A DNA stretch of 62,336 nucleotides, counting the filler, from Diploschistes diacapsis (Eukaryota): assembly GCA_023645945.1 (NCBI GenBank). It is 17 parts of 17 records of this genome, joined end to end, with 100 filler letters (N's around TTAATTAATTAA, not from the genome) between each part and the next. Parts side by side here need not be neighbours in the genome. Positions count along the whole stretch, not along the records: positions 4,734 to 6,996 come from JALAIB010002293.1; 16 more parts are not named here. The stretch is one strand, 5' to 3'. This document shows, one piece after another, positions 1-55,344 of this stretch. Position 1 is the stretch's first letter; the number at the start of each line of letters is the position of its first letter. Under the pieces are notes generated by a model. That model was not told where the DNA came from, made no database searches, and saw nothing but the letters and a program-made list of their open reading frames with translations. Made by a program: the position numbers and the translations under genes.

Positions 1-2267
1 TCGATTATAATAAAAATACGGCTTACGTCGTAGATAACTATTTCGAAGATTTAGTACGATGCCCACCAACATAGATCATGTTTAAATTTAGCGATAGCAG
101 GCCAATTGAGCTTAAAACGAAGATGGAAAATGGAATAACAGTTTACGGAAATAAAAATGTTCTGACACGATTAATAGAAGTAATTAATTCGTATTCAAAC
201 TTATAGATCGATACGGGAAATGTAACAATACCTAAATCACAATATCTCGAGATACTATTATTAAATAATTGGAAGGATAACTACGAAACGGGTTCAATAA
301 AGATATATTTTATAAATAATCGAAACCGGGTTTTAATCGATAAAACCTTCGATAAGTTACACGAGCAGGGAAGACTGGACTAGACAATTAACCATACGCC
401 ATTCAATTTCCCCGTCTTTGTTATGTGGAAGATGACAGATGGCATCAAGAAGGAACGGGCCGTTATAAACATCAAAACGTTAAATAAGATGTTTAAGAAA
501 AATGTTTATTTAATGTTTAATTAGGCAGACATTTTAAACGATATTAGAAAAATAGCTTTCATTACGATCGTGGATGCAGCCAAATTTTTTTATTAGTTCT
601 AAACGAAACTAAAACATCGCTATAGATTGACCGTCGTTACGCATCGTGATTAAAAGTAGGCTGGCCGTCACTGACACTGACACGGCCGTGTCAGTGACAC
701 GGACACTGACAGTGTCAGTGTCCGTGTTTTAGATTTTTTAACTACGATGTCCGTGTCCGTGGATTCACGGAAGTACAGTGTCCGTATCAGTATTAATATT
801 TTAAAATTTTTAATTATAATGTCCGTGTCCGTGCTTTCATTATAATATAATATCCGTGTTAGTATCCGTGTCGAAAAATTTTTTATTACGATATCCGTAT
901 CCGTGCATTTATCGAAACATTTTAAATTATTTTTTTAATTTTAATAATTCTAGAATTATCACGTCTATTTCTCACGCTTTTATTTTTTTAAAAAAATTTC
1001 ACTGTAATGTTTCGATGGATTCACCGCAGTGTTTCGGTGAATTCACGGAAATACAGTGTCCGTGTCAGTATCAGTATTTTAAAATTTTTAATTACAGTGT
1101 CCGTGTCCGTGCTTTTACTGCAGTATAGTGTCCGTGTCAGTGTCCGTGTTTTAAAATTTTAGCTGTCGTGTCCGTGTCAGTGTCCGTGTTTTGAAAATTT
1201 TTGCTGCAGTGTCCGTGTCAGTGACCGTGGCACGAAACGGCCAGCCTAATTAAAAGATATTCCAAATACCGGTCATAAGCTACATCAATATTCCAATCTA
1301 CGTCCAATACTAAATAAATAATTTATTACGCGATTTAAAAACTTTCTATCGAGCATATCAGGACGACATTATAATCTATAATACGACATTAATCGAACAT
1401 CTCAATTACCTCCACCAAATATTCGTCAAACTTGATAGCATTAACATCACGTTTACCCTGAAAAAGAGCTACATTAGCTTCCCTTCCGTTCAACTATTAA
1501 AATAGAAAGTAAATAAACTAAACCTAATCACATCTACGAACAAACTCAGAACCATTACGGAATTTAACTTTCTAAAAAACTTAACCTAGCTAGAATACTA
1601 TATTAAATTAATAGGATACATACGCAAGTATATACTCTATTATGTAACGATAATAGAACCTTTAGAAAAACGTAAAGCGATATTCAATCAGAAGCTTAAG
1701 TCGGCTTCTAAGAAATCTACAAAAGAAACGAATAGACCTAAAAAAAGAAACCACGCTGAAAAAAAATTATTACAAAAATCAACAAAGAAAGAGCTTTTAA
1801 CCTTCACACAGCTTCGTGATATCTTTACCAAAAATACGATACTAGTCCACCCCGACAGACGCCGAAAACTATACGGAGATATCGATACCAGCAAAATTTT
1901 TAAAATTAGTTACATACTTTATCACGTTAAAACAAATACAAAATTTAATTCCTATAAATATCCAACTTACAATTCTATAGAATCAATTCTGTTCCTATCT
2001 CGCAAGCTAAACGACGTAAAAAAAAAATACTGACTAACGGAATTAAAAATAACTAAATTAATTTAGTTTCTTAAGAAAATCCAATACTTAATCGAATTTA
2101 ACGAAGATATATCCATTATCTTTTTTACAAACTATACCGTCACGGTCGAGATAAGCAAACAAGTTTCCTTTAATACGATCAGTATAAAAAAATTTAACTT
2201 ACGTCTAATTCGGACATCTAAATATATTCAAAGGTTTAATATAGTCGTTAAATATATCTTTAAAAAG
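1..2267 (+). mobile_element. RIP-degraded Ty3/gypsy pol fragment (reverse transcriptase to RNase H)
   Basis: Readable motifs on the + strand: TIVDAAKFFY (~564), AYQDDII (YxDD, ~1353), LYGDIDTS (~1869) and Y*LTELK (YWPTELE-like, ~2028). Many TAA/TAG stops, with CpA/TpG depleted and CpG retained, as expected for RIP. Confidence 0.85.
657..1248 (+). mobile_element. hAT-type MITE, 592 bp, inserted in the gypsy RT
   Basis: 12-bp TIRs TAGGCTGGCCGT...ACGGCCAGCCTA, perfect 8-bp TSD ATTAAAAG (649-656 and 1249-1256), and dense internal GTGTCCGTGTCA repeats. Confidence 0.92.
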
Positions 2268-2882: not shown

Positions 2883-4633
2883 ATGGGCAAAGGTGCGCCT
2901 TGCGTTCGCTTTCAGTTTCTATTACTAATTCGGCTGCAGGTACCGACAAGTTGTATGTAAGTTGCGCGGCTCGCGTTCTGCACTCGGTTTGAACTGACAA
3001 ATTTCAGATCACCCACTCGGAGTGGGCATCAGAGGATGCGTTCTCTGCAAGCGCTGGATCCGGCCTGCGCTCGCAAGAATCGAACGCCACCTTCAAACGG
3101 CTTCCCTTCAACTACTGCGCTGTTTCGCTCCAGCCGTTCCGGCATCCCGTCTGCACCGCCGATGGAACGACCTTTGACCTCGAGAATATCATCTCATGGC
3201 TGGAGAAGCACAGCACGAACCCGATCAACGGGAATCCGCTCAAGCCCGAGGAGCTGATCAAGCTCAACTTCAGCAAGAACGACGATGGCGACTATGTCGA
3301 TCCCGTCACCTTCAAAGTGTTCACGAACAATACGCACATCGTTGCGCTGAAGAATACTGGCAATGTCTTTGCTTACGATACCATTCAGAGGCTCAACATC
3401 GAGGCCAAGATGTGGAGAGATCTCGTCAGCGACGAGGAGTTCAGCCGCAAGGACGTCGTCGTGTTGCAAGACCCACAGAATGTCGAATCGAGAAATATCT
3501 CGACGTTCAAATACCAACAGGACGGAGTGAGTAATTTGACAGCAGACAAGGAGCAGGAACGCAAAGATCCTTCTCGGAACATCAAGAAGTCGGCCCTGGG
3601 AAGTTCTGCCCGGGTTCTAAAGGCCAAAGAAGCTGTTGCTCTTGCTCGATCGAACCGTGACGCCTCCGATCCAAACCACAATACCACGATATCCTCAAAA
3701 GGTAGCGGTGTTAGAGCAAGCTCTGTTCCCCAAAAATCGCAGACCGCAAAGCCCATACCATACAACGCCGCACGGTACACCACCGGCAAAGCTGCGCAGT
3801 CCTTCACCTCGACAGGCTACACTCCTCACACGTCCGCCGAGCGCGCTCTGCTCACGGAAGAGGAATACATGCTTCAACCCAAACGGGTCAAGGAAAAGGG
3901 GTACGCAAGAATCACCACAACCCACGGCGACCTGAACATCGAGCTGCGCCCCGAGTTCGCGCCACACGCCGTGTGGAACTTCGTCCAGCTGGCCAAGAAG
4001 GGCTACTACAACGGCATCGCCTTCCACCGCAACATCCGGAACTTCATGATCCAGGGCGGCGATCCCACAGGCACGGGCCGCGGCGGGAAAAGCATCTGGG
4101 GCAAGGACTTCAAGGACGAGTTCGACGGCCCGCTGACGCACGACGCGCGCGGCGTCGTCAGCATGGCGAACAAGGGCAAGCACACCAACGGCTCGCAGTT
4201 TTTCATTACCTACCGCCCCGCCAAGCACCTCGACCGGAAGCACACCGTCTTCGGCCAGGTCGTCGGCGGCCTGGACACGCTCGCGCGCCTCGAGAGGGTG
4301 CCGGTCGACGACGGCGACAAGCGGCCGCTCGAGGATATCGAGATGCAGGAGGTCGTCATCTTCCTCGATCCCTTCGAGGAGTTCCAGAAGGCCCGCCGCG
4401 AACGCGACGAGGCCGAGACGGAGAGGGCGGAGACCAAGAGGCGGGGTGGCACCGAGGACGACCGGACGACGTGGACGGGGAAGCGGGTCGGCGCGGACGG
4501 GACGGTGGAGGCGGGCGCGGAAGACGAGGGCGCGGCGGGCGTGGGCAAGTATCTCAAGGCTGCTGCTGCGGCCGCGGCCGCGGCGGCGGAGAGGGGAGAG
4601 AATGATGGAGGTGCGAGGGAGAAGGGGGAGGAG
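2883..4633 (+). CDS. PPIL2: Peptidyl-prolyl cis-trans isomerase-like 2 (U-box plus cyclophilin, Cyp60), 3'-truncated by the contig end
   Basis: Exons 2883-2892, 2940-2956 and 3008->4633 (GT-AG introns 2893-2939 and 2957-3007) give MGKGTDKLYITHSEW...RLPFNYCAVSLQPF. The cyclophilin core FHRNIRNFMIQGGDPTGTGRGGKSIWG...HTVFG follows. Confidence 0.93.
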
Positions 4634-4733
4634 NNNNNNNNNNNNNNNNNNNNNNNNNNNNNNNNNNNNNNNNNNNNTTAATTAATTAANNNNNNNNNNN
4701 NNNNNNNNNNNNNNNNNNNNNNNNNNNNNNNNN

Positions 4734-5692
4734 TCGATATATTAATTATATTACGGCCTAAATTTTCGTTTTTCGTAATTAATGATTCCGTTAGATATTT
4801 TATTTTCGTATTAGCACGGGCTTATGTTTTTTATAAAAGAAGTTTATTCCGTTTAATGCGATAAGTAAATTTAAGAAACCGATTAATATCCTTTTATATA
4901 GATCGTTTTAATATATCTTATGTCCGTTCTAGGCGAGCCTATAACATTTCTACGTAAGGATAATTACGGCGTGTATATTTCGAATATTTCAGGACTTTAG
5001 AACTAAATAATATAACGAAATAGAACTTGTCGTTAAAAGAATAATATTTATAAAAAGAAATAATAAGGATTTTGTAACGAACGATAGAACGGGAAAGTTA
5101 GATTCGTTCAACGGATCGATTGCGAGAAGTTAAAAGAAATATCGTTGTTTCACGATTTAAAATTCTTTTTTATTTAATACTTATATTAGATCTTTCGGCG
5201 AATCATCGGGCCGATAATGTTGAAGGAAAGGGATAATATTACGATCTAAGTATTAGATTTAGTACGTTCTAGCTTTATATATAGATCAGTTACGGGATCA
5301 AAGGTCACGTGATACGTTTATTGTTCGCGCTTATCCTCGTAAACGATAAGCGGGTTTTTATTATCGCTCGATAATCGCGTTTATTTTTATAAGCGGCGAG
5401 TTTTAAAAGCACCGCTCGTTAAATTTATACTAAGCGGCGAGCGAGCTAATTATATATAAACACGACTTTATTTTTATAAAAAAGAGCGTATTTATTTTTA
5501 TAAATATTCTTAACGATTACTCGGGATTAATTTATATTCGTTATTTCTATTATTTAGAGAGTCTTTTTTTTAAAAATAGTTTAAGACTTATAACTGCTCT
5601 ATCTTCTTCTCTTATCACACTCTTCTTCTAACAGAGACCAAACCCACCTTGATCCTACTCGTGTATATCTTGTATAGATAGAGATCATAACA
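4734..5692 (+). mobile_element. Gypsy family A 3' end: post-pol region, PPT and 3' LTR (5237-5692)
   Basis: Polypurine tract GAAGGAAAGGGATAA directly precedes tattacgatc (RIP form of TGTTACGATCC), and the LTR ends ...GATCATAACA. Related LTRs occur at 12704, 52822 (-) and 54374-55344. Confidence 0.85.
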
Positions 5693-6996
5693 TTGCCTTA
5701 GCGATTATATTTATAAAACCTATTGTTGCCGAGATTTTTGCGATACGCGAGCCATTGTTAAACTCGTTCTCGTCGTTGGCCGGGGCTTGGATATCTAGCT
5801 TATTATAAAAAGCTTTAACTACGAGTTAAATAACATGCGTAAGATAAGGTATATTAAATCTATCCGGGTCCCAATCGGCTTTATTTTCTATTATGTATCT
5901 TGTAATAGGCCGGCCGTTTCGTGCCACGGTCACTAACACGGACACTACAGCAAAAATTTTTTAAACACGGACATTAACACGGACACGACAGCTAAAATTT
6001 TAAAACACGAACACTAACACGGACACTATACTATAATAAAAGCACGGACACGGACACTATAATTAAAAATTTTAAAACATTGACATTAATACGGACACTG
6101 CACTTCCGTGAATCCACGAACACGGACACCGCAACTAAAAAATCTAAAACACGGACACTGACACTATCAGTGTCCGTGTCACTGACACGGCCGTGTCAGT
6201 TTCAGTGACGGCCAGCCTATCTTGTAAGAATACTACGCGCGCGGATAAGATTAGTACTATTATTAATTATCATTCTAAATAATCGTGAATGTAGGTTATG
6301 TTTGTATAACACGTCGAAGATCGTTTTTTTTAGTTTTTTTTTTATAGCCTTACTATATATCGAAAGTATATTAAATAAAGTTTCACGGAATTTTTATTGA
6401 CTATTAATTTAATAAATTATAATTATTAAAAAATATAGATAATTAATTAACGTTTAATAATTAATCGTAATGCTGATTTTATTATCCGATTTAAATATAT
6501 TAGTATATCGAGTTTATACGTCGTTAAATAGCTTATTTAGCTTCTGTCTTATTTTAGTTCGTCTTAATAGTTAGATGTTGAACCCGAAACTTCTGAACAG
6601 CTTTTTTGTAACAAGATTCTCCGTTCAACGAAATAAAAGATTTAGATTTAATCCGAATATTAATAGATCACGAGTAATATCACGTTTCTCGCTTTTATTC
6701 GTTGTTCGTATTGTTAAATTACGGGAAAAACCTTTCTATAAGACCTTATATTAATTTATGTTTCGATTAATTTCTTACGATTATTTCTCACGATCTACTT
6801 ACCGAAGAGAAATACTGAGAAATGGTTCGTTAATTCGCGCGACTGGATTTAAAATTAACCTGAGATAGAGCGTTGTGTTAGTTTTCTTTATATCTAGATA
6901 TTTCTTTACTGCTTTGTATAAAAGCTTTAGGATGCTAGAAAACTTGGTAATAAATTATGTATTGGACTTTAGGATTTCTATCATTTAGCGCTGCGA
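5693..6996 (-). mobile_element. RIP-degraded hAT transposase remnant
   Basis: Minus strand reads KISITINY*T (ISIALDCWTS-like, ~6480-6450), LFRMIINNSTN (TTDN-like, ~6280-6250) and PYLTHVI*LVVKAF (CxxHVIQL-like, ~5850-5810). Confidence 0.7.
5906..6219 (-). mobile_element. hAT MITE, 314-bp internally deleted copy
   Basis: Same TIRs as 657-1248 (one mismatch) in reverse orientation, with perfect 8-bp TSD TCTTGTAA (5898-5905 and 6220-6227). Confidence 0.92.
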
Positions 6997-7244: not shown

Positions 7245-7888
7245 TATCCAAATAAATATTTATTAAAAACATTTGGTAAAAATATCCGAAATAAAGAACA
7301 TTTTTTATAAAATAATTATAAGAAATATAAAAATCAATTAAGGAATCGAAATCAAAGATAGTATTGTATTTAATTTAAGAAAAATTATAGACATAACGAC
7401 GTAAAATGATTTAAATTGAATAATTTCGAAACAATTATAACGCGTAAAAGATATTGTCGCGTTTTTAAAATCGAAAAGGATAAAAAACATGATGAAATTT
7501 ATTCAGATCGATTAAATTTTGATTGCGACGAATAAATTGCGTTTAAACCCGTGGAATGGTAATAATAGTAATTTAAGATCACCAACTTCTGGGGGTGACC
7601 TACTTTCCAAATTGGCTGTGATGTCAGTTATATATAAAAACTGACTTTTATAGCCATTTTGCTCGACATTCAATAATCGGTGCTTATGTTAAGAATCCCA
7701 AGCCACTTCTATTAACTTTTGCAACGTACTGTATGGATGTCAAACTCGCTAGACATTATTACATCTCGTACTCTATAATGAGTTGGAGATACCTGGATTT
7801 ACCTTCCAATTCCCCGCCCCTGCCAACCTTCGCGCTGAATCCACTCTCCCATCAACTAAAGCCTCTCGCTTTTCACTAAATTGACACG

Positions 7889-8557
7889 ATGGACTCTGCA
7901 CGAGCGCAGTCACGGCCTATTATACTAGAAACATTGGATGCGACTTCCTTCCGGCCTTTTGGTTATGTTCTCGAAGATCCCCATCTAGGTCAAAGTACGT
8001 TGCGGCTAAACGGAACAAGCGCCAACCAGGGGACTGCTCTCAAATTTGCAGATATAATTCCCCTTGAGAACATGTATCATAAAGCACCGGATGTTAGTAC
8101 CGTACGGCCATCCATCAATCTCTTCGTATGCTCCCCTCGGACGCCCATTGAAGACCTAAATGATGTCCCCAATAGGCTACTCCCTCTACCCGTTCTTGAG
8201 CGCCATCGCTTCACAACACAAACCTTCGTTCCCATTGGACTTGACCCAAATAGTGAGGAGGCGAGCTATCTCGTTATCGTGGCCGGCTCTAGAGCTATTC
8301 CAGGTTCGACTGACGACTTACCCAATATTCAGAATGTTCGTGCGTTTGTTGCTCGGGGATCCCAGGCGATCACCTACGGATGCGGGGTATGGCACGCCCC
8401 AATGATTGTACTTGGGGCAAAGCCCATATCATTCGTTGCAATTCAATTTGTGAATGGCATTTCGAAAGACGACTGTGAAGAATGTGAGATTGGCCTGATG
8501 GATTCTGGCATACATATTCAACTTCCGCGTGGAAGGATCCTTCGGAGCAATCTCTGA
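7889..8557 (+). CDS. DAL3: Ureidoglycolate lyase/hydrolase, intronless, 222 aa
   Basis: Motifs FRPFGYV, SANQGTALK, LERHRFTTQTFVP and QAITYGCGVWHAPM. Confidence 0.88.
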   Translation: MDSARAQSRPIILETLDATSFRPFGYVLEDPHLGQSTLRLNGTSANQGTALKFADIIPLENMYHKAPDVSTVRPSINLFVCSPRTPIEDLNDVPNRLLPLPVLERHRFTTQTFVPIGLDPNSEEASYLVIVAGSRAIPGSTDDLPNIQNVRAFVARGSQAITYGCGVWHAPMIVLGAKPISFVAIQFVNGISKDDCEECEIGLMDSGIHIQLPRGRILRSNL

Positions 8558-9459: not shown

Positions 9460-10000
9460 ATATTATCAAGTATTTTTGCTAAGTTAATAAATTATTCAGA
9501 ATATTCGAATTAATCAGTACTAGTGATATCCAATTTAATGGGGTTTATTAGGTACTATCTATTGTCGCGAAAATATTAAGAATGTCGTATTTTATATTAC
9601 GTAAGCGTGGATATTCCTGGCGTGAGAGCTTTAGCGAGTTTTTAACGCTAGTTATCCGGCGCTAAATTAGCGGAATTTTTGATAATTTTTCTGAATTTTT
9701 TTAATTTATGATTACGTAATAAAATGATTGGCCTCGCTATCTTTGCCGGTTTTGCTAATTTCGCCAGTTTCGCTAGCTTTCGCCGGAAAAAAAAATTTCG
9801 CTTAAAAAACTTTTCTTGATGTAGGTGTGTTATAATTTCACGATATGACTTAATATCTTATTATAGTCAGTTGCTCGAAAGTCCCCGTCCAAAGTATCGT
9901 TTAGGTGCGGTACTGGGTATAGTATCAATGTTGATGTTTTTACAATGTGTGTTACATTTATTAGTGTAATGCGGCCTGGAGCTGCCACTTGTTAACGCAT
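9460..10000 (-). mobile_element. Degraded DNA-transposon debris with an hAT dimerization-like motif
   Basis: Minus strand reads QEYPRLRNIKYDILNIFAT (~9620-9560), resembling YPxLxxMAxDILSIPAT. RIP-type composition. Confidence 0.4.
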
Positions 10001-10005
10001 AAAAA

Positions 10006-10398
10006 TGGTTGAAGTGGTGGATGTTCCTAATATAAATGACAAATGACTAAGATATATTCAGCAGCTAGTCTTAACTAGTAAACAATCACTAGCCTGCCTA
10101 GCCTGGTAGCTGACTATTCTTCAGTGATTGTATTAAAGATGATGAAGGTAATAACTATAAACAATAGAAGGTGAGAGGGCTTTTATAGACACATTTCACC
10201 CTAATATAATTAATATCATTAATCTAGAACGTTCTTTATCCTTCCAAAATATTCCATGCATTAATAAGCCGAATATTCTAGAATATTCGATAATATTCGA
10301 TAATTGTCGGTGGTATCCTATTATGTTTTAGAATATTCGAAACATACTAGAAGCTTAATAAGCAATATGACTAAGCTATATAGATTAGTATTCTGACA
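10006..10398 (-). mobile_element. Solo LTR, family D
   Basis: TGTCAGAATAC...TTCAACCA on the minus strand. Flanks AAAAA/AAGAA are a near-perfect 5-bp TSD. Homologous to 13252-13866. Confidence 0.7.
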
Positions 10399-10725
10399 AA
10401 GAAATAAACGAATTTAATTAAATGTCGTTTTATATTTGATAACCACATTTTCAAATATAATAATGCCCATTAATTGTAATTAAATAATATCGAGCCAACT
10501 TATGATTTATAAAAGATATTGCTTCGTTTTTTAAAAAATAATTATCATCTAAATCAATGAAATTTCAAGTTTTGACACATAAATTGTATTTAAAAACCGT
10601 AGAATGATAACACTAGTAATTTACACTGGCCCACTTCTGAGGTTGGCCCGCTTCCCAGTCAAACACGTTATCTATGAAATTGCGAGATATTACCTCTAGT
10701 GTAATTTAAGTATTGCTTATATGTA

Positions 10726-10935
10726 CAGTGGGGTCCCAAAAGAGGTTGGGTAAGAAAACAACAAAACACGACCTACCAACTTCATCAAGCCATTGCGCGC
10801 TCAATAAAGTTTGAATGAATGCGTAAATTAGATCATTTTGAATCTCTTAAATAGTAGATAATATTAGTATTGAATTTGCCATCTTCACCCGTCTATACAG
10901 GTCTGTATACGCTTTGATATAGAATGGATTAATAA
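10726..10935 (+). mobile_element. Tc1/mariner (impala-like) left end, interrupted by an hAT MITE
   Basis: TA then CAGTGGGGTCCCAAAA, resembling the impala/mimp CAGTGGG terminus. The other end is not visible. Confidence 0.4.
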
Positions 10936-11721
10936 TAGGCTGGCCGTCACTGACACTGACACGGCCGTGTTAGTGACACGGACACTGACACGGACACTGA
11001 CACGGCCGTGTTAGTGACACGGACACTGATAGTGTCAGTATTAGTGTTTTAGATTTTTTAGCTATAGTGTTCGTGTCCGTAGATTCACGGAAGTGCAGTG
11101 TCCGTGTTAATATCAATATTTAAAAATTTTTATTGTAATGTCCGTGTCCGTGTTTTCATTATAATATAATGTCCGTGTTAATGTCCGTACCGAAATCTTT
11201 TTTATAACGGTATCCGTATCCGTGCATTTATCGAAATATTTTAAAATATTTTTTTAATTTTAATAATTTTAGAATTATCACGTCTATTTCTTACGAGTTT
11301 ATTTTTTTAAAAAAATTTCATCGCGGTGTTTCGATAGATTTATCGTAATATTTCGATAAATTTACGGAAGTGTAATATCCGTATCAATATTAATATTTTA
11401 AAAATTTTAATTATAATATCCGTGTCCGTGCTTTTATTATAATATAATGTCCGTGTTAGGCTGGCCGTTTCGTGCCACGGTCACTGACACGGACACTGCA
11501 GCAAAAATTTTCAAAACACGGACACTGACACGGACACGACAATTAGAATCTTAAAACACGGATACTGACACGGACATTATCTTTCCGTAAATTCACGGAC
11601 ACGGACACCGCAATTAAAAAATTTAAAATACGGACATTAATACGGATATTATAATTAAAAAATTTAAAACACGGATACTGATACGGATATTATATTTTCA
11701 TAAATCCATTAACACGGATAC
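10936..11721. mobile_element. Two nested hAT MITE copies: + copy 10936-11456, with a - copy inserted at 11457 that runs to the contig end
   Basis: TAGGCTGGCCGTCAC at 10936 and TAGGCTGGCCGTTTCGTGCC at 11457. The internal sequence matches 657-1248. Confidence 0.88.
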
Positions 11722-11821
11722 NNNNNNNNNNNNNNNNNNNNNNNNNNNNNNNNNNNNNNNNNNNNTTAATTAATTAANNNNNNNNNNNNNNNNNNNNNNN
11801 NNNNNNNNNNNNNNNNNNNNN

Positions 11822-13157
11822 AAATCAGATAACGAGAACGAGTACGAAGTCGAAATAATCGTATATTATAAAAATAATAAATATTTAATTAAATAGAAAG
11901 GATATCTAAAGTTAAAGATAATATAAGAACCTAAAAAAAACCTAAAAAACTATAAGATAAAATTAGCGAAATTCTAAGATATTAACGGACCTACTATTAA
12001 AAATAATTGGAATTAAGGATGGAGAATCTACGGAACATACGTATATTTGATATAAAAATTAATCTAACGAAACGGGATTTTTATCTCTTAAGACCTAATT
12101 TAACCGATCCGGCGATATTATCGTTAATTTAAATAATTCTAGATTAAATTCCGTTGATAAATCTTTTTAGACGTTGATATATGCCTCGAATGATTTTAAG
12201 TCTAATTTTTCCGCTAAATAACGCGCTTATTCGTTAGTACGATTTTCCGTTAGTTTAAAAACCTTTTAATTACGGCGAATACGACGTTTGCGTTAAAGAC
12301 GACGATTTTTAATTTTACGGAATTATTTCTTTAGTTTTTTTTCTTGTTTATTATCCTCGTTAAGAAGCTTTTTATTTTTATCGATCTCTTCTCGTGTCGA
12401 AAGGATAATTCGTTTAATTATCTCTTAGATAATAGAAATACAATCCTTTTATTAAACTTAATACAGCGAGCGTATTTAACGAAAATAAAAGACATTTTGA
12501 TGTAATCGTGAAAGAATAAATAATAATTATAAAATAATATATCTAAATATAATCTTAAAAACGAATAATAGAATTCAGGCGTTTCTTTTATTTCGAAGAT
12601 GAAGAAGATATCGTTCTCTTACGACTTAGGATTTTCTTTTATTTAATATTTATGTTTATTCTTCGGTATTTATCGGGCCGATAAGGCTGAAGGAAGGGGA
12701 TAATATTACGATCCAAGTGACTAAATGGTAGCTACTTAGTATTTTATAGCTGATCGGGCCTAACCTAATCATTCTTTATATATAGTTCAATTATGGTAAT
12801 ACTGGTCACGTGATGAATAGAAAGTTTTGGAAGCTATTTTACCTTTTATAGGTAGAACGGGAGAACGGTAATTCTATTTATTTATTGATTTATTCCGTTA
12901 AGGAGCAGTTGGTTATATAGAAACGTCATTATGGTTCTTATGAATTTTGGTATGTTTATTTTTATAAATATTTCTAATTATTGCTCGAGATTAATTTATA
13001 TTCGTTACCTTTATTAATAGAGTTTTCTTTCTAAAAGACAGTCTAGGACCTATAACTGCTCTAACTTCTTCTCCTGCTTGCATTCCTCTTCTAAACGAGA
13101 CTAAACCTACCTTGATCAATACCTCGTGTCTACATTGTAGAGATAGATATCATAATA
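11822..13157 (+). mobile_element. Gypsy family A (chromovirus) 3' end: chromodomain, ~700-bp post-pol region, PPT and 3' LTR (12704-13157)
   Basis: Chromodomain ENEYEVEIIV...YLIK*KGY...*EPKKNL (11830-11950). PPT GAAGGAAGGGGATAA, then tattacgatccaagt...gatatcataata. Confidence 0.85.
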
Positions 13158-13251
13158 AACGCGTTCTTGTTAAATTATTACGTCGTACGAAATTAAAAAC
13201 CTAATTTTTATTAACGATAAATAAAAGTAAGAACGCGTTTCGGTCGATTAA

Positions 13252-13866
13252 TGTCAGAATACTAACCTAAATAGGTTAGTCAGATTGCTTACTAAGCTTC
13301 TAGCATGTTCGAATATTCTGGAAGGTTCTAGAATATTCTAGAACATAATAGAATATTATCGAAGATTATGGAATATTATCGAATATTCGGCTTACTAATG
13401 CATGGAATGATTTAGAAGGATAAGGAACATTCTAGATTAAATTATTACTAATCAAACTAGCGTGAAATGTGCCTATAAAAGGCCTCTCACCCTCTATCAT
13501 TCTTAGTTACAACCTTCAACCTCTTCAATATATCTTTATTGAACAATAGTCAGCTACCAGGCTAGGCAGGCTAGGAATATTTCCTAGTTAGGACTAGCTG
13601 CAGAATACACTCTTAGTCATCAGTTATCTATTAACGTGTTTCACCACTTAACGGATCACACCACAAAGCGGCTCACCATATTATAATGTAGATGCGCTAG
13701 ATAGTTTTAACCGAGCTTTTGAGCCCCACAACCACACATAAAATTATTTGTACGAAAGGTGAAAATGTTAAGAAATACATTTTACGAAGGTGCAGGGATT
13801 GTGAACCGCTTTGTGGTGTGATCCGTTAAGTGGTGAAACACGTTAGGACTTCCACCACGTTCAACA
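13252..13866 (+). mobile_element. Solo LTR, family D, carrying a MITE
   Basis: TGTCAGAATAC...TTCAACA with flanks ATTAA/ATTAG. Homologous to 10006-10398. Confidence 0.75.
13634..13843. mobile_element. pogo/Fot1-type MITE, 210 bp
   Basis: 38-bp perfect TIR ACGTGTTTCACCACTTAACGGATCACACCACAAAGCGG with a TA TSD (13632-13633 and 13844-13845). The empty site is visible in the LTR copy near 10027. Confidence 0.92.
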
Positions 13867-13892
13867 ATTAGTAATATATTAATTATATCTTT

Positions 13893-14081
13893 TGTTGAGC
13901 AGACAGGCAGAAGGCATGGCTGGGAGTTCGACTGAGTTCTAGTCGGGGGTTTAGTTCAGCTGAACTCCGAGGTTCAGTTCAGCTGAATTTCTTAGAATTC
14001 TGACTGACCGATCGGGAATAGTGTTGATAATAAGATTTAGCGGAACCTATAGGGTATAAAAGTTTGCGTAATAGGATATTT
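13893..14081 (+). mobile_element. Copia family C LTR, partial
   Basis: TGTTGAGCAG...GTTCAGCTGAA...GGTATAAAAG, shared with 19070, 54209 (-), 57777 and 58720. Confidence 0.75.
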
Positions 14082-50775: not shown

Positions 50776-52822
50776 CTTTATTACTCCTCTATTATGCATA
50801 CCGATCGGACATTTCTTTATCTTATAGTCGTATAAAAGATAATGGTCTTTATATTTATTATCGTTTAATACTTCCTCGTAGTATCGTTAGAATGTTACGT
50901 TGGTAATTATCCTTCCGTAAAGGACGTATATTAATGTTTCGTGTTTAACGTAATCGTATCCGAAATTTCCGCATTCGTCGAAAAGTATGTAATCTAGATG
51001 TTTTCGATTATTGACGATAAGAGCTTTCCTTCGAAGGTACTTTTACTTATTTATAACTCCTCCTGGAATACGAAACGCGTACGTTGCTTCTTCGCTTAAA
51101 TTAGTTCCTAAAGATCCTCGAGTATTTAATCTAGCGTTAGGGATTGGATCGCACGTTTAAACCGATTCCCCGTATTCCGTTACATTTAAGTTCGGAATAT
51201 CATTGCCCTTCGAAATTTACGTAATTAATATTATAATTAATAAAAACGTGGTTTCGGTATTTTTATCAATTAAATCGTCGGTGTCGCCCTGCCAGACTAT
51301 GGTGTCCGAGTTAACTATAACTTCCTCCCAAGGTTATCCGTCGGTCGGATAGTCTTCTATAAAAATAACTATAATTACGTTAAGATGATGCTGATCTATC
51401 GCTGCTAAGATATCTTTTTTAACGATCTTGTTCTTTGATCTACAATCTCGAGCGAAGTAACCTATCTTACCACATTCGAAGCACTTCTTTCCTTTTACTA
51501 AAGGTCCCCCGTTGGATCTTTTAGCACCTTTCTTCTAATTGGGCCGGGGTTTGCTAATTAAGGCATCGAGATTTATAGCGTCGTTATCTATATATCTTAT
51601 ATTTTATATATTTTTTATATAATTAATACGGTAGCGAAATTCTGGTTTAATAATTTTATTTCGATTAAAACGACGTTCCTATTTTCGATTAAATAATCGG
51701 TCGTTTTTAGTTATTGTTGTGACTGAAAGGGCCGATAAACTCCGAAACTAATTTTAATTATATATAAGTTCGTTTTTGATTAAGTTCTTGAATCCGTTTT
51801 TATATATTTCTATTAAGACTTTTTTATTTTATTTAATTAGTTTGGCGTATTCTTGAAAATTTGCCGTGTATTCTGAAATTGAGCTTCTTTAATTAATTAT
51901 TTTAATAATTCGAATCGTATATTTTCTATCGTTGGTCGTTTTAAAGGTCTGTCGAACCTGTTTTTTAAACCTCGTGAAAATTTTAAACATTCCGTAGCTA
52001 TTTTTTTAGTTTTTTAAATATGCGTCGAGATGAAGTTTTATTCATGTTAATACGCGGTCACGTATGAATCTTACGGCGAAGATAGTTCGTTTTTTTTAAT
52101 CGTTTATAATATGCGAGTTTTAATAAAAGTATATTAAGAATTAAAGTATTTAGTGTTTTAATTTTTTTCGGTTTCCGTGGAACGTTATTAGTTTTATAAT
52201 TTTTATAATAGGTTTTTTATACGGTTTGTTTTCGTTGGGTTTATCGTTACTTCCGGGATGTCTATTATTGAGACATCGGTTTTATTTAGTGGCATTATTG
52301 TTTTAAATATTCGAGATGATGCGGATCTAGTTATTAGCGGTGATCGGCCGGTTATGCTATTTGAGATATTTATTCTTAAGGGTGTTTAAGTTTTATAATC
52401 TTTATCTTTATAAGGTAGATACGAGGTATTGATTAAAGTGAGTTTGGTCTCGTTTAGAAAAAGAGTGTAAGTAAGAAAAGAAAATAGAGTAATTATAGGT
52501 CCTAGACTGTTTCTAAAAAGAAAGTTTTAATAATAAAAGTAACGAATATAAATTGATCCGAATAATAGTTAAGGATGTTTATAAAAGTGAATATATCGGA
52601 TTTAAGAAAATCGCGGCGACGTTCTTATATATAGTTAATATCGCTAGATGCTAGATGTCAGCCGGCTGGCGTCGTTTATTTGGTAACCGCTAGATGCCAG
52701 CTGCTAGACGGCTGTCGGCTGTCGTTTGTCGATCACGTGACCCGCGTCACCATGATTGGCCTATATACAAAGAAGCTGGGACGTGCCAAGTAGACTACCC
52801 AGTAGTTACTTGGATCGTAACA
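50776..52822 (-). mobile_element. Gypsy family A 5' LTR (52822 to ~52392) and gag
   Basis: The LTR starts TGTTACGATCCAAGT on the minus strand. Zinc knuckle KCFECGKIGYFARDCRS at ~51487-51437. Confidence 0.88.
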
Positions 52823-54234: not shown

Positions 54235-55344
54235 AATTAATAAATAAATAAAACTACCGTTCTCCCGTTCTATTTATAGAAAAATAAAATAGACTCAAAG
54301 ATTTTTTACTCATCACGTGACCAACGTCACCATAATTAAACTATATACAAAGAATGGTTAAGAAGTGCCTGACTGTTACGATCCAAGTAACTAGGTGGTA
54401 GTCCACTTGGCACTTCACAGCTAATCGGGCCTAACCTAACCACTCCTTGTATATAGTTGTTATGATCTCTATCTCTACAAGGTAGACACGAGGTATTAAT
54501 CAAGGTGGGTTTGGTCTCGTTTAGAAAAGGAATGCAAGCAGGAGAAGAAAATAGAGCAATCACAAATCTTAAACTATCTCTAGAAAGAAGGCTCTTTAAT
54601 AAAAGAAATAACGAATATAAATTAATCCTAAATAATAACTAAAGATATTTATAAAAGTAAACACGCCCTAAATTTATAAAGGCCATAACGACGTTCTTAT
54701 ATAATCAACAACTCCCTTAATGGAATAAATAAATAAATAAATAAAATTATCGTTCTTCTTTTCTATTTATAATTGAATAAAATGGTCTTTTAGATTTTTT
54801 ATTCGTTACGTAACCCTTATCATTCTAACTAGACTATATATAAAAAATGATTAAAAAATGTCCGATTAATTATTACGTACTAAATATTACCGTTTAGTAC
54901 CTTAAATCGTAATATTATCCCTTTCCTTTGTTACGATCCAAGTACCAGACTTGGCACGTCCCAGCTTTGTATATAGGTCAGTCACGGGACCAGGAATCAA
55001 GTAACACGTTCACTGCCCGCGCTTATTCTCGTAAACGGCGAGCAAGCTTTTATTACCGCTCGATAATCGCGTTTATTCTTATAAGCGACGAGTCTCGAGA
55101 ATACTATTCGTTAAACTTACGATAAACGGCGAGCGAGTTAATTATATATAAATACGATTCTATTTTCGTAAAAAAGGATATATTTATTTTTATAAATATC
55201 TTTAATTATTATTAGGGATCAATTTATATTCGTTATTTTTATTATTAGAAAACTTTCTTTTTAAAAATAATCTAAGATTTATAATTATTTTATCTTCTTT
55301 TCTTATTATATTCTTTTTTTAATAAAGATTAAACTTATCTTAAT
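54235..55344. mobile_element. Nest of four family A LTR segments in alternating orientation
   Basis: (-) ~54235-54373; (+) 54374-54457; (-) complete LTR 54458-54914 plus PPT 54915-54928; (+) 54929-55344. Confidence 0.85.

Follow-up and report, generated by a model that had tools for sequence, protein, structure and literature searches.

Additional open reading frames (ORFs) placed antisense between pol and the 3' long terminal repeat (LTR) occur in the plant retrotransposons Grande1, RIRE2, Retand and PvRetro13, and the accessible part of the source gives their function as unknown (PMC7264820). A fungal case is brtn, the antisense gene of Boty in Botrytis cinerea and Sclerotinia sclerotiorum, likewise of unknown function in the available portions of the papers (PMC7264820, PMC8365987). 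According to excerpts of two further papers, Boty-like elements carry a chromodomain (PMC4227169) and Monilinia has BRTN-like transcripts (PMC5987419). The word 'brtn' does not occur in the text supplements of PMC8365987. Here we analyse a stretch of 62,336 bases (the window) from Diploschistes diacapsis (assembly GCA_023645945.1), made of 17 parts joined end to end with 100 filler letters (N) between parts. Its minus strand at 4735-5142 appears to hold a gene of this kind: an accessory gene of a chromovirus-type LTR retrotransposon, antisense between pol and the 3' LTR, killed by repeat-induced point mutation (RIP). We put the probability of this reading at roughly 0.68. A preliminary description of the locus had left open whether such a gene was already described; the kind is, as brtn of Boty, the original paper on which is reportedly Zhao et al. 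2011 (Virology 417:248), whereas our literature search returned no paper joining a zinc-cluster-like protein with an antisense gene of a retrotransposon.

The evidence for a former gene comes from an intact relative. The minus frame of 4734-5232, with stops written as X, was searched by HMMER against 1.84 billion cluster representatives at E <= 0.001. A single protein was recovered, P0002, of 182 residues, which aligned by phmmer over query positions 35-165 with its residues 5-137 (E 7e-8, 35% identity). P0002 was used as a protein sequence alone. Pairwise BLASTP of the relic against it gave E 4e-21, and tblastn of P0002 on the window gave one significant match, at 5130-4735 (-), in a single frame with one two-codon gap (E 1e-11). 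In a RIP-aware scan of the whole window with P0002, the relic locus scored 111 and the runner-up 29.

The manner in which the gene was lost can be followed codon by codon. Relic and protein have the same residue at 47 of the 136 aligned codons, and 88 of the 136 are derivable from the P0002 residue by C>T/G>A changes only, against 23.0 +/- 4.3 (maximum 36) in 2000 trials with random in-frame AT-rich stretches of the window. Six in-frame stops interrupt the relic, five of which derive from Gln or Trp codons (four Gln, and Trp70); there is no frameshift, and one stretch is two codons shorter than in P0002. Both M1 and M44 of P0002 are ATA here, and a seventh cysteine, C118, is also Tyr (codon 4795-4797). 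The RIP index (CpA+TpG)/(ApC+GpT) is 0.30-0.47 across 4751-5500, against 1.0-1.8 in the neighbouring genes. The 3' part of the relic reaches an N run, which ends at 4733/4734. Judged from sequence, the minus strand from 5142 to 4735 is a dead small protein gene, destroyed by RIP-type C-to-T/G-to-A mutation. The 52-aa stop-to-stop ORF at 4942-5097 gave no homologous protein candidate, and Pfam gave no family at E <= 10 in the six read-through frames of 4734-5233 (stops as X). As a point of method, a RIP-erased gene with six stops, a lost start and every Cys changed to Tyr was recoverable once its frame had been translated with X in place of stops and compared with a very large protein library, each codon then being checked for C-to-T/G-to-A descent.

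The preliminary description had started from a run of tyrosines on the minus strand at 4954-5052, six of which it took for former cysteines in the spacing of a Gal4-type zinc cluster. On retranslation this interval reads YKYYSFNDKFYFVILFSSKVLKYSKYTRRNYPY, exactly the letters given there. The six Tyr codons chosen (5050-5052, 5041-5043, 5020-5022, 4984-4986, 4975-4977 and 4954-4956) face C31, C34, C41, C55, C58 and C65 of P0002, and the two tyrosines passed over align with residues other than Cys, that of 'KY' with Phe and that of 'TRRNYP' with Arg. The TAG after VEML, which had been read as Trp, aligns with W70. The spacing by itself would carry less weight. Across the six frames of the window, the pattern [CY]-x2-[CY]-x6-[CY]-x5-12-[CY]-x2-[CY]-x6-8-[CY] has a sole stop-free match, 4954-5052 (-); at least one match also arose in 10 of 300 windows shuffled with dinucleotides preserved in 1000-bp blocks, and in 18 of 300 shuffled in 300-bp blocks. 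Because shuffled DNA also yields matches, the Cys/Tyr spacing alone is no proof, and proof comes from the external homologue. Within the limits of a sequence comparison, the alignment with P0002 establishes the six cysteines, the tryptophan and the start codon of the former gene. The features of the locus, of its second copy and of P0002 are listed below.

Table 1. Coordinates of the gene relic, the associated retrotransposon features and the regions of P0002 (window positions unless P0002 is named; PPT, polypurine tract).
Feature	Position	Strand	Basis or remark
RIP-inactivated small-gene relic, visible 136 codons = P0002 residues 1-138	4735-5142	-	phmmer, BLASTP, tblastn, RIP-aware scan
Former start codon, ATA opposite Met1 of P0002	5140-5142	-	ATG to ATA = TpG to TpA change
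Six-Cys module, all Cys now Tyr	4954-5052	-	translation + P0002 alignment
Long-helix relic (coiled-coil-like), begins at TAG opposite Trp70	4735-4941	-	P0002 alignment + AlphaFold2
Spacer, 80 bp, gene start to PPT, conserved in copy 2	5143-5222	.	blastn + repeat comparison
PPT, GAAGGAAAGGGATAA	5223-5237	+	alignment of copies 1 and 2 with the minus copy that ends at 54928
LTR, 455 bp, TA (from TG)...CA	5238-5692	+	blastn
Further LTR copy (first of four)	12705-13157	+	blastn
Further LTR copy (second of four)	54929-55334	+	blastn
Further LTR copy (third of four)	54928-54458	-	blastn
Further LTR copy (fourth of four)	52593-52393	-	blastn
Copy 2, degraded chromodomain, end of pol	11837-11975	+	PDB phmmer
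Copy 2, expected rest of gene, degraded past proof, includes 12440-12531	12000-12590	-	extension score
Copy 2, first seven codons, ISSSSSK vs MSSPTPR	12591-12611	-	anchored RIP-aware score 15, null maximum 8, 0/150 as high
Copy 2, PPT	12690-12704	+	homologous to copy 1 PPT
Basic N-terminal arm	P0002 1-30		net charge +4
Six-Cys module, C-x2-C-x6-C-x13-C-x2-C-x6-C	P0002 31-65		net charge +3
Long helix	P0002 66-144		net charge -7
Acidic tail	P0002 145-182		net charge -4

The possible coiled-coil that the preliminary description placed after the cysteines corresponds in P0002 to a predicted helix of 74 residues: AlphaFold2 gives one helix over 71-144, with means of at least 92 for the 10-residue blocks across 81-140. 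The cysteine region is less clear. The full-length model has short helices at both C-x2-C pairs, with low confidence throughout the Cys region. A sub-model of 57 residues, with a mean pLDDT (predicted local distance difference test) of 75.8, shows a beta-hairpin and, from the second C-x2-C onwards, a helix. All these structure models are single-sequence and zinc-free. Zn2Cys6 spacing is usually quoted as C-x2-C-x6-C-x5-12-C-x2-C-x6-8-C; the loop between the halves of P0002, x13, is one residue over the quoted range of 5-12, and that of the window relic, x11, is within it. In Zn2Cys6 factors the zinc module is typically paired with a downstream coiled-coil dimer helix, according to the part of the review available to us (PMC6265462). 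By analogy with Gal4-type factors, the protein might bind zinc through its six cysteines, dimerise through the long helix and act on nucleic acid in the nucleus, a suggestion that we offer tentatively and at somewhat less than even odds.

Several results weigh against a zinc cluster of the Gal4 type. P0002 matched the Pfam profile Zn_clus (PF00172) over residues 55-69 only, with E 2.8 and 8.5 bits against a cut-off of 21, so that the Gal4-type membership proposed earlier did not survive the profile comparison. A phmmer search of P0002 against the PDB gave four rows at E <= 10, none of them a Zn2Cys6 chain. With the 57-residue model, Foldseek returned a best E of 4.2, with 1cld, which we take to be the LAC9 zinc cluster, at rank 5 (E 8.2), and a wide fold search by VIA found nothing at Z >= 2; the suggested structural kinship thus found no fold match among solved Zn2Cys6 domains, the models compared in Foldseek and VIA being zinc-free. 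For the Cys region, the two AlphaFold2 models give different structures. In Gal4, Lys18, between Cys2 and Cys3, contacts CGG (PMC6265462, available part); the corresponding position is Leu in P0002 and Asp in the window, and the Cys2-Cys3 stretch reads TDHLLP in P0002, without a basic residue, and SFNDKF in the window, with one Lys. The nearest cluster in the ESM Atlas (score 0.92, 77 members, Ascomycota) bears the automatic name 'Zn(2)-C6 fungal-type domain-containing protein', which we regard as a lead only. Among the named clusters of the same atlas, P0002 residues 1-80 scored 0.86 at best; these clusters had no Pfam family in common, and Zn_clus did not appear among them.

These results leave room for another type of zinc-binding module, for example a zinc ribbon or a treble clef built on the two C-x2-C pairs, in an accessory gene whose product acts on RNA or protein, for example in handling the element's RNA. 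The unreached Zn_clus cut-off, the scarcity of basic residues between Cys2 and Cys3, the hairpin and helix of the sub-domain model and the lack of any matching Zn2Cys6 structure all agree with it, and in plants too the functions of such antisense ORFs are unknown according to the accessible text of PMC7264820. On the other side, an exact duplication of C-x2-C-x6-C with a long helix after it is how Gal4-type proteins are laid out, as described in the available part of PMC6265462; the automatic ESM Atlas name points the same way, as a lead, and the full-length model has its short helices at both C-x2-C pairs. On balance we consider a module of this other type rather unlikely, though well worth keeping in mind.

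The placement of the gene in a retrotransposon is indicated by what follows its start. The copy at 4735-5692 (copy 1) and a second one around 12 kb (copy 2) both read TATTACGATC at the LTR start, with the purine run GAAGGAA(A/G)GGGATAA directly before it. The left end of the LTR is fixed by the plus copy at 54929, which starts TGTTACGATCC. Its orientation follows from a gag zinc knuckle (zf-CCHC E 0.004) on the minus strand at 51337-51534, which the minus LTR 52593-52393 precedes by about 0.9 kb, together with the chromodomain relic upstream in copy 2. Judged by these neighbours, the repeat is genuinely the LTR of an element with gag and pol. Since the gene starts 80 bp from the PPT and 3' LTR and reads away from them, it is antisense to gag-pol; it thus lies directly upstream of PPT and 3' LTR on the strand opposite gag-pol, as expected of the ORF class called aORF-3R. 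As far as the alignments go, the core of the preliminary description holds: at the 3' end of an LTR element there was an antisense gene whose cysteines RIP has erased. Elsewhere in the window, two LTR copies stand head to head at 54928/54929, where the minus copy ends with the PPT and the plus copy starts with unmutated TGTTACGATCC; this junction points to the insertion of one element immediately upstream of the PPT of another.

Copy 2 is informative at its 5' end. Repeat D9 joins 5126-5194 with 12595-12663 (74% identical), and blastn joins 5134-5251 with 12602-12718 (80.7% identical). Leftwards from the LTR, the DNA of the two copies therefore stays homologous across PPT and spacer and over the first 16 bases of the gene, as far as 5126/12595. 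The preliminary description had placed the second copy of the cysteine module at 12440-12531 (-). The letters quoted are present there: the strand reads YNYYLFFHDYIKMSFIFVKYARCIKFNKRI, with one in-frame TGT. Homology of this interval to copy 1 or to P0002 was not borne out by four kinds of test. Against 4954-5052, blastn gave no match at E 1e-3; a transition-tolerant local alignment scored 49.5, against 43.6 +/- 7.2 for shuffles; a purine/pyrimidine alignment scored 34, against 28.5 +/- 4.3; and a RIP-aware protein-DNA alignment to P0002 with frameshifts allowed scored 17, a value reached in 85 of 100 nulls. An anchored DNA test of copy 2 was borderline, with 5/400 to 143/400 nulls as high, depending on length and scoring. 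When the anchored alignment is carried on to residue 65, Tyr or Cys stands opposite each of C41, C55, C58 and C65, but the score of 17 against 15.5 +/- 1.0 is not significant (6 of 60 nulls as high). What remains of the claimed second copy is thus its first seven codons and the 5' flank, and not the rest of the gene.

Upstream of the gene, copy 2 retains a degraded chromodomain. The best PDB matches of this relic are CDY1 (E 0.046) and SUV39H1 (E 0.084), chromodomain proteins making up 7 of the 23 rows; Pfam gave no family at E <= 10 on the same stretch, 11837-11975, and none in the six read-through frames of 9460-14081. The order in copy 2 is chromodomain relic (to about 11975), 636 bases, the start of the antisense gene at 12611, spacer, PPT and LTR, and a gene of about 182 codons fits into the interval of 636 bases.

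The link between gene and element has weak points, which we gather here as counting against the proposed reading. No complete element carrying the gene is present within the window. In copy 1 a host gene occupies the place where pol would be expected: a plus-strand ORF at 2993-4681, across the N run 4634-4733 from the relic, encodes a U-box and cyclophilin protein (U-box E 1.5e-5, Pro_isomerase E 2.8e-51), and AT-rich DNA starts within this N run. Neither tblastn nor RIP-aware alignment detects the body of the gene in copy 2. Among the longest contig pieces listed from public sequencing runs (see below), none bridges the gene across the PPT into the LTR. A word-index protein search with P0002 returned only itself, so that the family has one known relative. 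In short, the window copies are all dead, P0002 is the single known relative, and the evidence that ties the gene to the element comes from truncated copies. The preliminary description had taken the gene for an extra antisense gene carried by the family between pol and PPT; the PPT, at 5223-5237, the orientation antisense to PPT and LTR, and the high copy number of the repeat stand, whereas pol beside copy 1 does not, the U-box/cyclophilin gene lying upstream there.

These points raise the alternative that the relic is real and lies outside any retrotransposon, in another repeat or in a multi-copy host gene family, with an LTR element beside it by chance. Copy 1 without pol would suit this, as would a gene body that is not demonstrable in the one chromodomain-bearing copy. 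Moreover, the LTR copies of the window are nested and truncated, as at the 54928/54929 junction, so that chance neighbours would be common in it. Against such a coincidence, the gene start, the 80-bp spacer, the PPT and the LTR are conserved as a block in copies 1 and 2, contigs from other copies join the gene to the spacer, the 636-base interval in copy 2 suits a gene of about 182 codons, and the purine tract that immediately precedes the LTR identifies the block as part of the element's interior. A chance neighbourhood is therefore unlikely in our judgement, and the gene probably belongs to the element rather than merely adjoining it.

Fragments of reverse transcriptase (RVT_1 E 1.6e-4) and of RNase H (RT_RNaseH_2 E 2.5e-5) occur at 1314-2030 (+), upstream of the unmutated U-box/cyclophilin gene and in the same orientation as the relic/PPT/LTR fragment 4734-5692. 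The idea that 1314-2030 and 4734-5692 are one element split by the host gene was dropped, there being no integrase signal in 2067-2821. The RNase H fragment at 1590-2033 had no homologous longer protein in a protein search.

Other copies of the relic are present in public data. Contig pieces from three public runs (X1-X3), whose labels include lichen and rock metagenomes, were aligned at 80% likeness to 4734-5700. There were 6,776 pieces from X1, 24,404 from X2 and 2,125 from X3, covering all 30 bins; a further run, X4, gave no contig piece on 4734-5700. With thousands of contig pieces over it, the relic belongs to a high-copy repeat and not to unique DNA. Contigs bridging the 5' part of the gene into the spacer include record 23 of X3 (5030-5218) and record 14 of X2 (5030-5168). 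A search of metagenome contigs with RIP-tolerant purine/pyrimidine patterns for the PPT junction and for 4901-4940 found 0 loci, both patterns matching the window.

Where the other copies differ from the window, part of the lost protein reappears. The comparison is confined to the 40 best-supported of 445 difference rows, 20 of which lie inside the gene. Among these 40, the majority letters of the other copies change the tyrosines at 4960-4962 and 4861-4863 to CGT (Arg), the residues R63 and R96 of P0002, and the Phe at 4867-4869 to Leu, its L94. The 20 best-supported differences in the gene affect 16 codons, 11 of which change synonymously in the relic frame, and third codon positions hold 12 of the 20 changes (binomial p 0.013). 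This hints at coding constraint on the relic frame, a hint weakened by the selected subset of rows. None of the best 40 rows falls at the middle base of the six Cys-derived codons, and the table consequently neither shows nor excludes C there in other copies. At 4862-4863, 4961-4962, 5008-5009 and 5475-5476, TA in the window corresponds to CG in most other copies. Such paired T>C and A>G differences at four sites imply that mutation struck both strands of CpG, beyond CpA/TpG; at two of the four, an Arg codon (CGT) of the antisense gene thereby became TAT (Tyr).

The copy number also bears on the proposal that the relic is a host pseudogene, present once and derived from the N-terminus of a zinc-cluster transcription factor, which was mutated by RIP leaking from the neighbouring LTR. 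The relic does lie between a host gene and an LTR, and RIP can spread into flanking unique DNA. However, contig pieces in their thousands, from three data sets and with 80-99% likeness, together cover the whole of 4734-5130, the RIP index at the relic is as extreme as within the LTR, and P0002 is a complete protein of 182 aa, not the head of a long factor; a leaked-on pseudogene is accordingly very improbable. That the tyrosine pattern arose by chance in AT-rich, TAT-rich mutated DNA and no gene ever existed, for which one could cite the matches in shuffled windows and the choice of six among eight tyrosines after the fact, is on these sequence comparisons already refuted by the match to P0002, intact and aligned across 134 residues with Cys at exactly those six positions, by the codon descent of 88/136 against a null maximum of 36 in 2000 trials, and by the two Arg and one Leu of P0002 that other copies restore.

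In the first 16 kb of the window, host genes form GC-rich islands of 2-3 kb among RIP-mutated repeat blocks; besides the U-box/cyclophilin gene, an unmutated ureidoglycolate lyase gene lies at 7880-8557 (+) (Pfam E 7.2e-39). The window has 32 N runs of 44 bases, paired and recurring about every 2.35 kb (e.g. 4634-4677 and 4690-4733), and under one such pair lie the stop region of the cyclophilin gene and the relic's 3' end. Tandem arrays of short units, rich in ACGGACAC and GTGTCCGT, occur in both orientations at 650-1260, 5896-6230 and 10927-11721 (84-89% identical). These blocks flank LTR fragments, their ORFs yield only weak, Saw1-like Pfam noise, and they may be the ends of another repeat.

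Returning to the accessory gene of the retrotransposon, we propose the following course of events. The ancestral gene encoded a P0002-like protein of about 180 residues, with a basic N-terminal helix, a six-Cys module, a coiled-coil-type helix of about 75 residues and an acidic tail. As an accessory gene, which it probably was, it would have been transcribed antisense from a putative promoter in the spacer or in U3 of the LTR. RIP-type transitions then removed the start codon, added six stops and turned all cysteines to tyrosines, without a frameshift. Possible roles of the protein include control of the element's own transcription or targeting, and it might act on the element's own ends.

The sequence CGGGCCG (CGG-N1-CCG) occurs in the spacer of both copies, at 5207-5213 and 12674-12680, 65 bases upstream of the gene start. 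It is, as speculation, a candidate binding site for a zinc-cluster-type protein; alternatively, it may have been spared since it lacks the CpA/TpG that RIP prefers. Taken furthest, the analogy would have a chromovirus of lichen- or rock-associated ascomycetes encode a miniature Gal4-like factor, with zinc module, coiled-coil dimer and acidic activation tail, that binds its own 3' region or LTR, with CGGGCCG as candidate site, and switches the element on or steers its landing. We regard this as quite improbable. If true, a transposon-borne regulator of the fungal zinc-cluster type would be new, and such elements could be a vehicle that spreads and multiplies these DNA-binding modules in fungal genomes.

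Antisense extra genes at the 3' ends of gypsy elements have no known role, as stated in the accessible part of PMC7264820, and the present case offers a protein architecture. With a recognisable architecture and one intact relative that can be expressed, zinc binding, dimerisation and binding to the element's own DNA become testable.

Three groups of known systems invite comparison. With the Gal4-type proteins of PF00172 (Gal4, Ppr1, Put3, Hap1, Leu3), the P0002-like protein shares two C-x2-C-x6-C halves, a long helix directly after them and a fungal origin, and its second half, KCTECISRGRPC, resembles the PF00172 consensus (the partial Pfam match of residues 55-69). It differs from them in its length of about 180 aa without a large regulatory region and in being encoded by a transposon, as well as in the Pfam score below cut-off, the x13 loop of P0002 and the few basic residues between Cys2 and Cys3. 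The antisense ORFs of plants have the same position in the element and the same orientation, and are conserved within families; the likeness is one of position only, since they belong to plant elements, several of them of non-chromovirus lineages. The resemblance to brtn of Boty, likewise one of description only, embraces a fungal gypsy element with a chromodomain and an extra antisense gene between pol and the 3' LTR. Unlike Boty, the present repeat belongs to another fungal lineage, the runs in which it was found being labelled as lichen and rock metagenomes, and every copy of it in the window has been killed by RIP.

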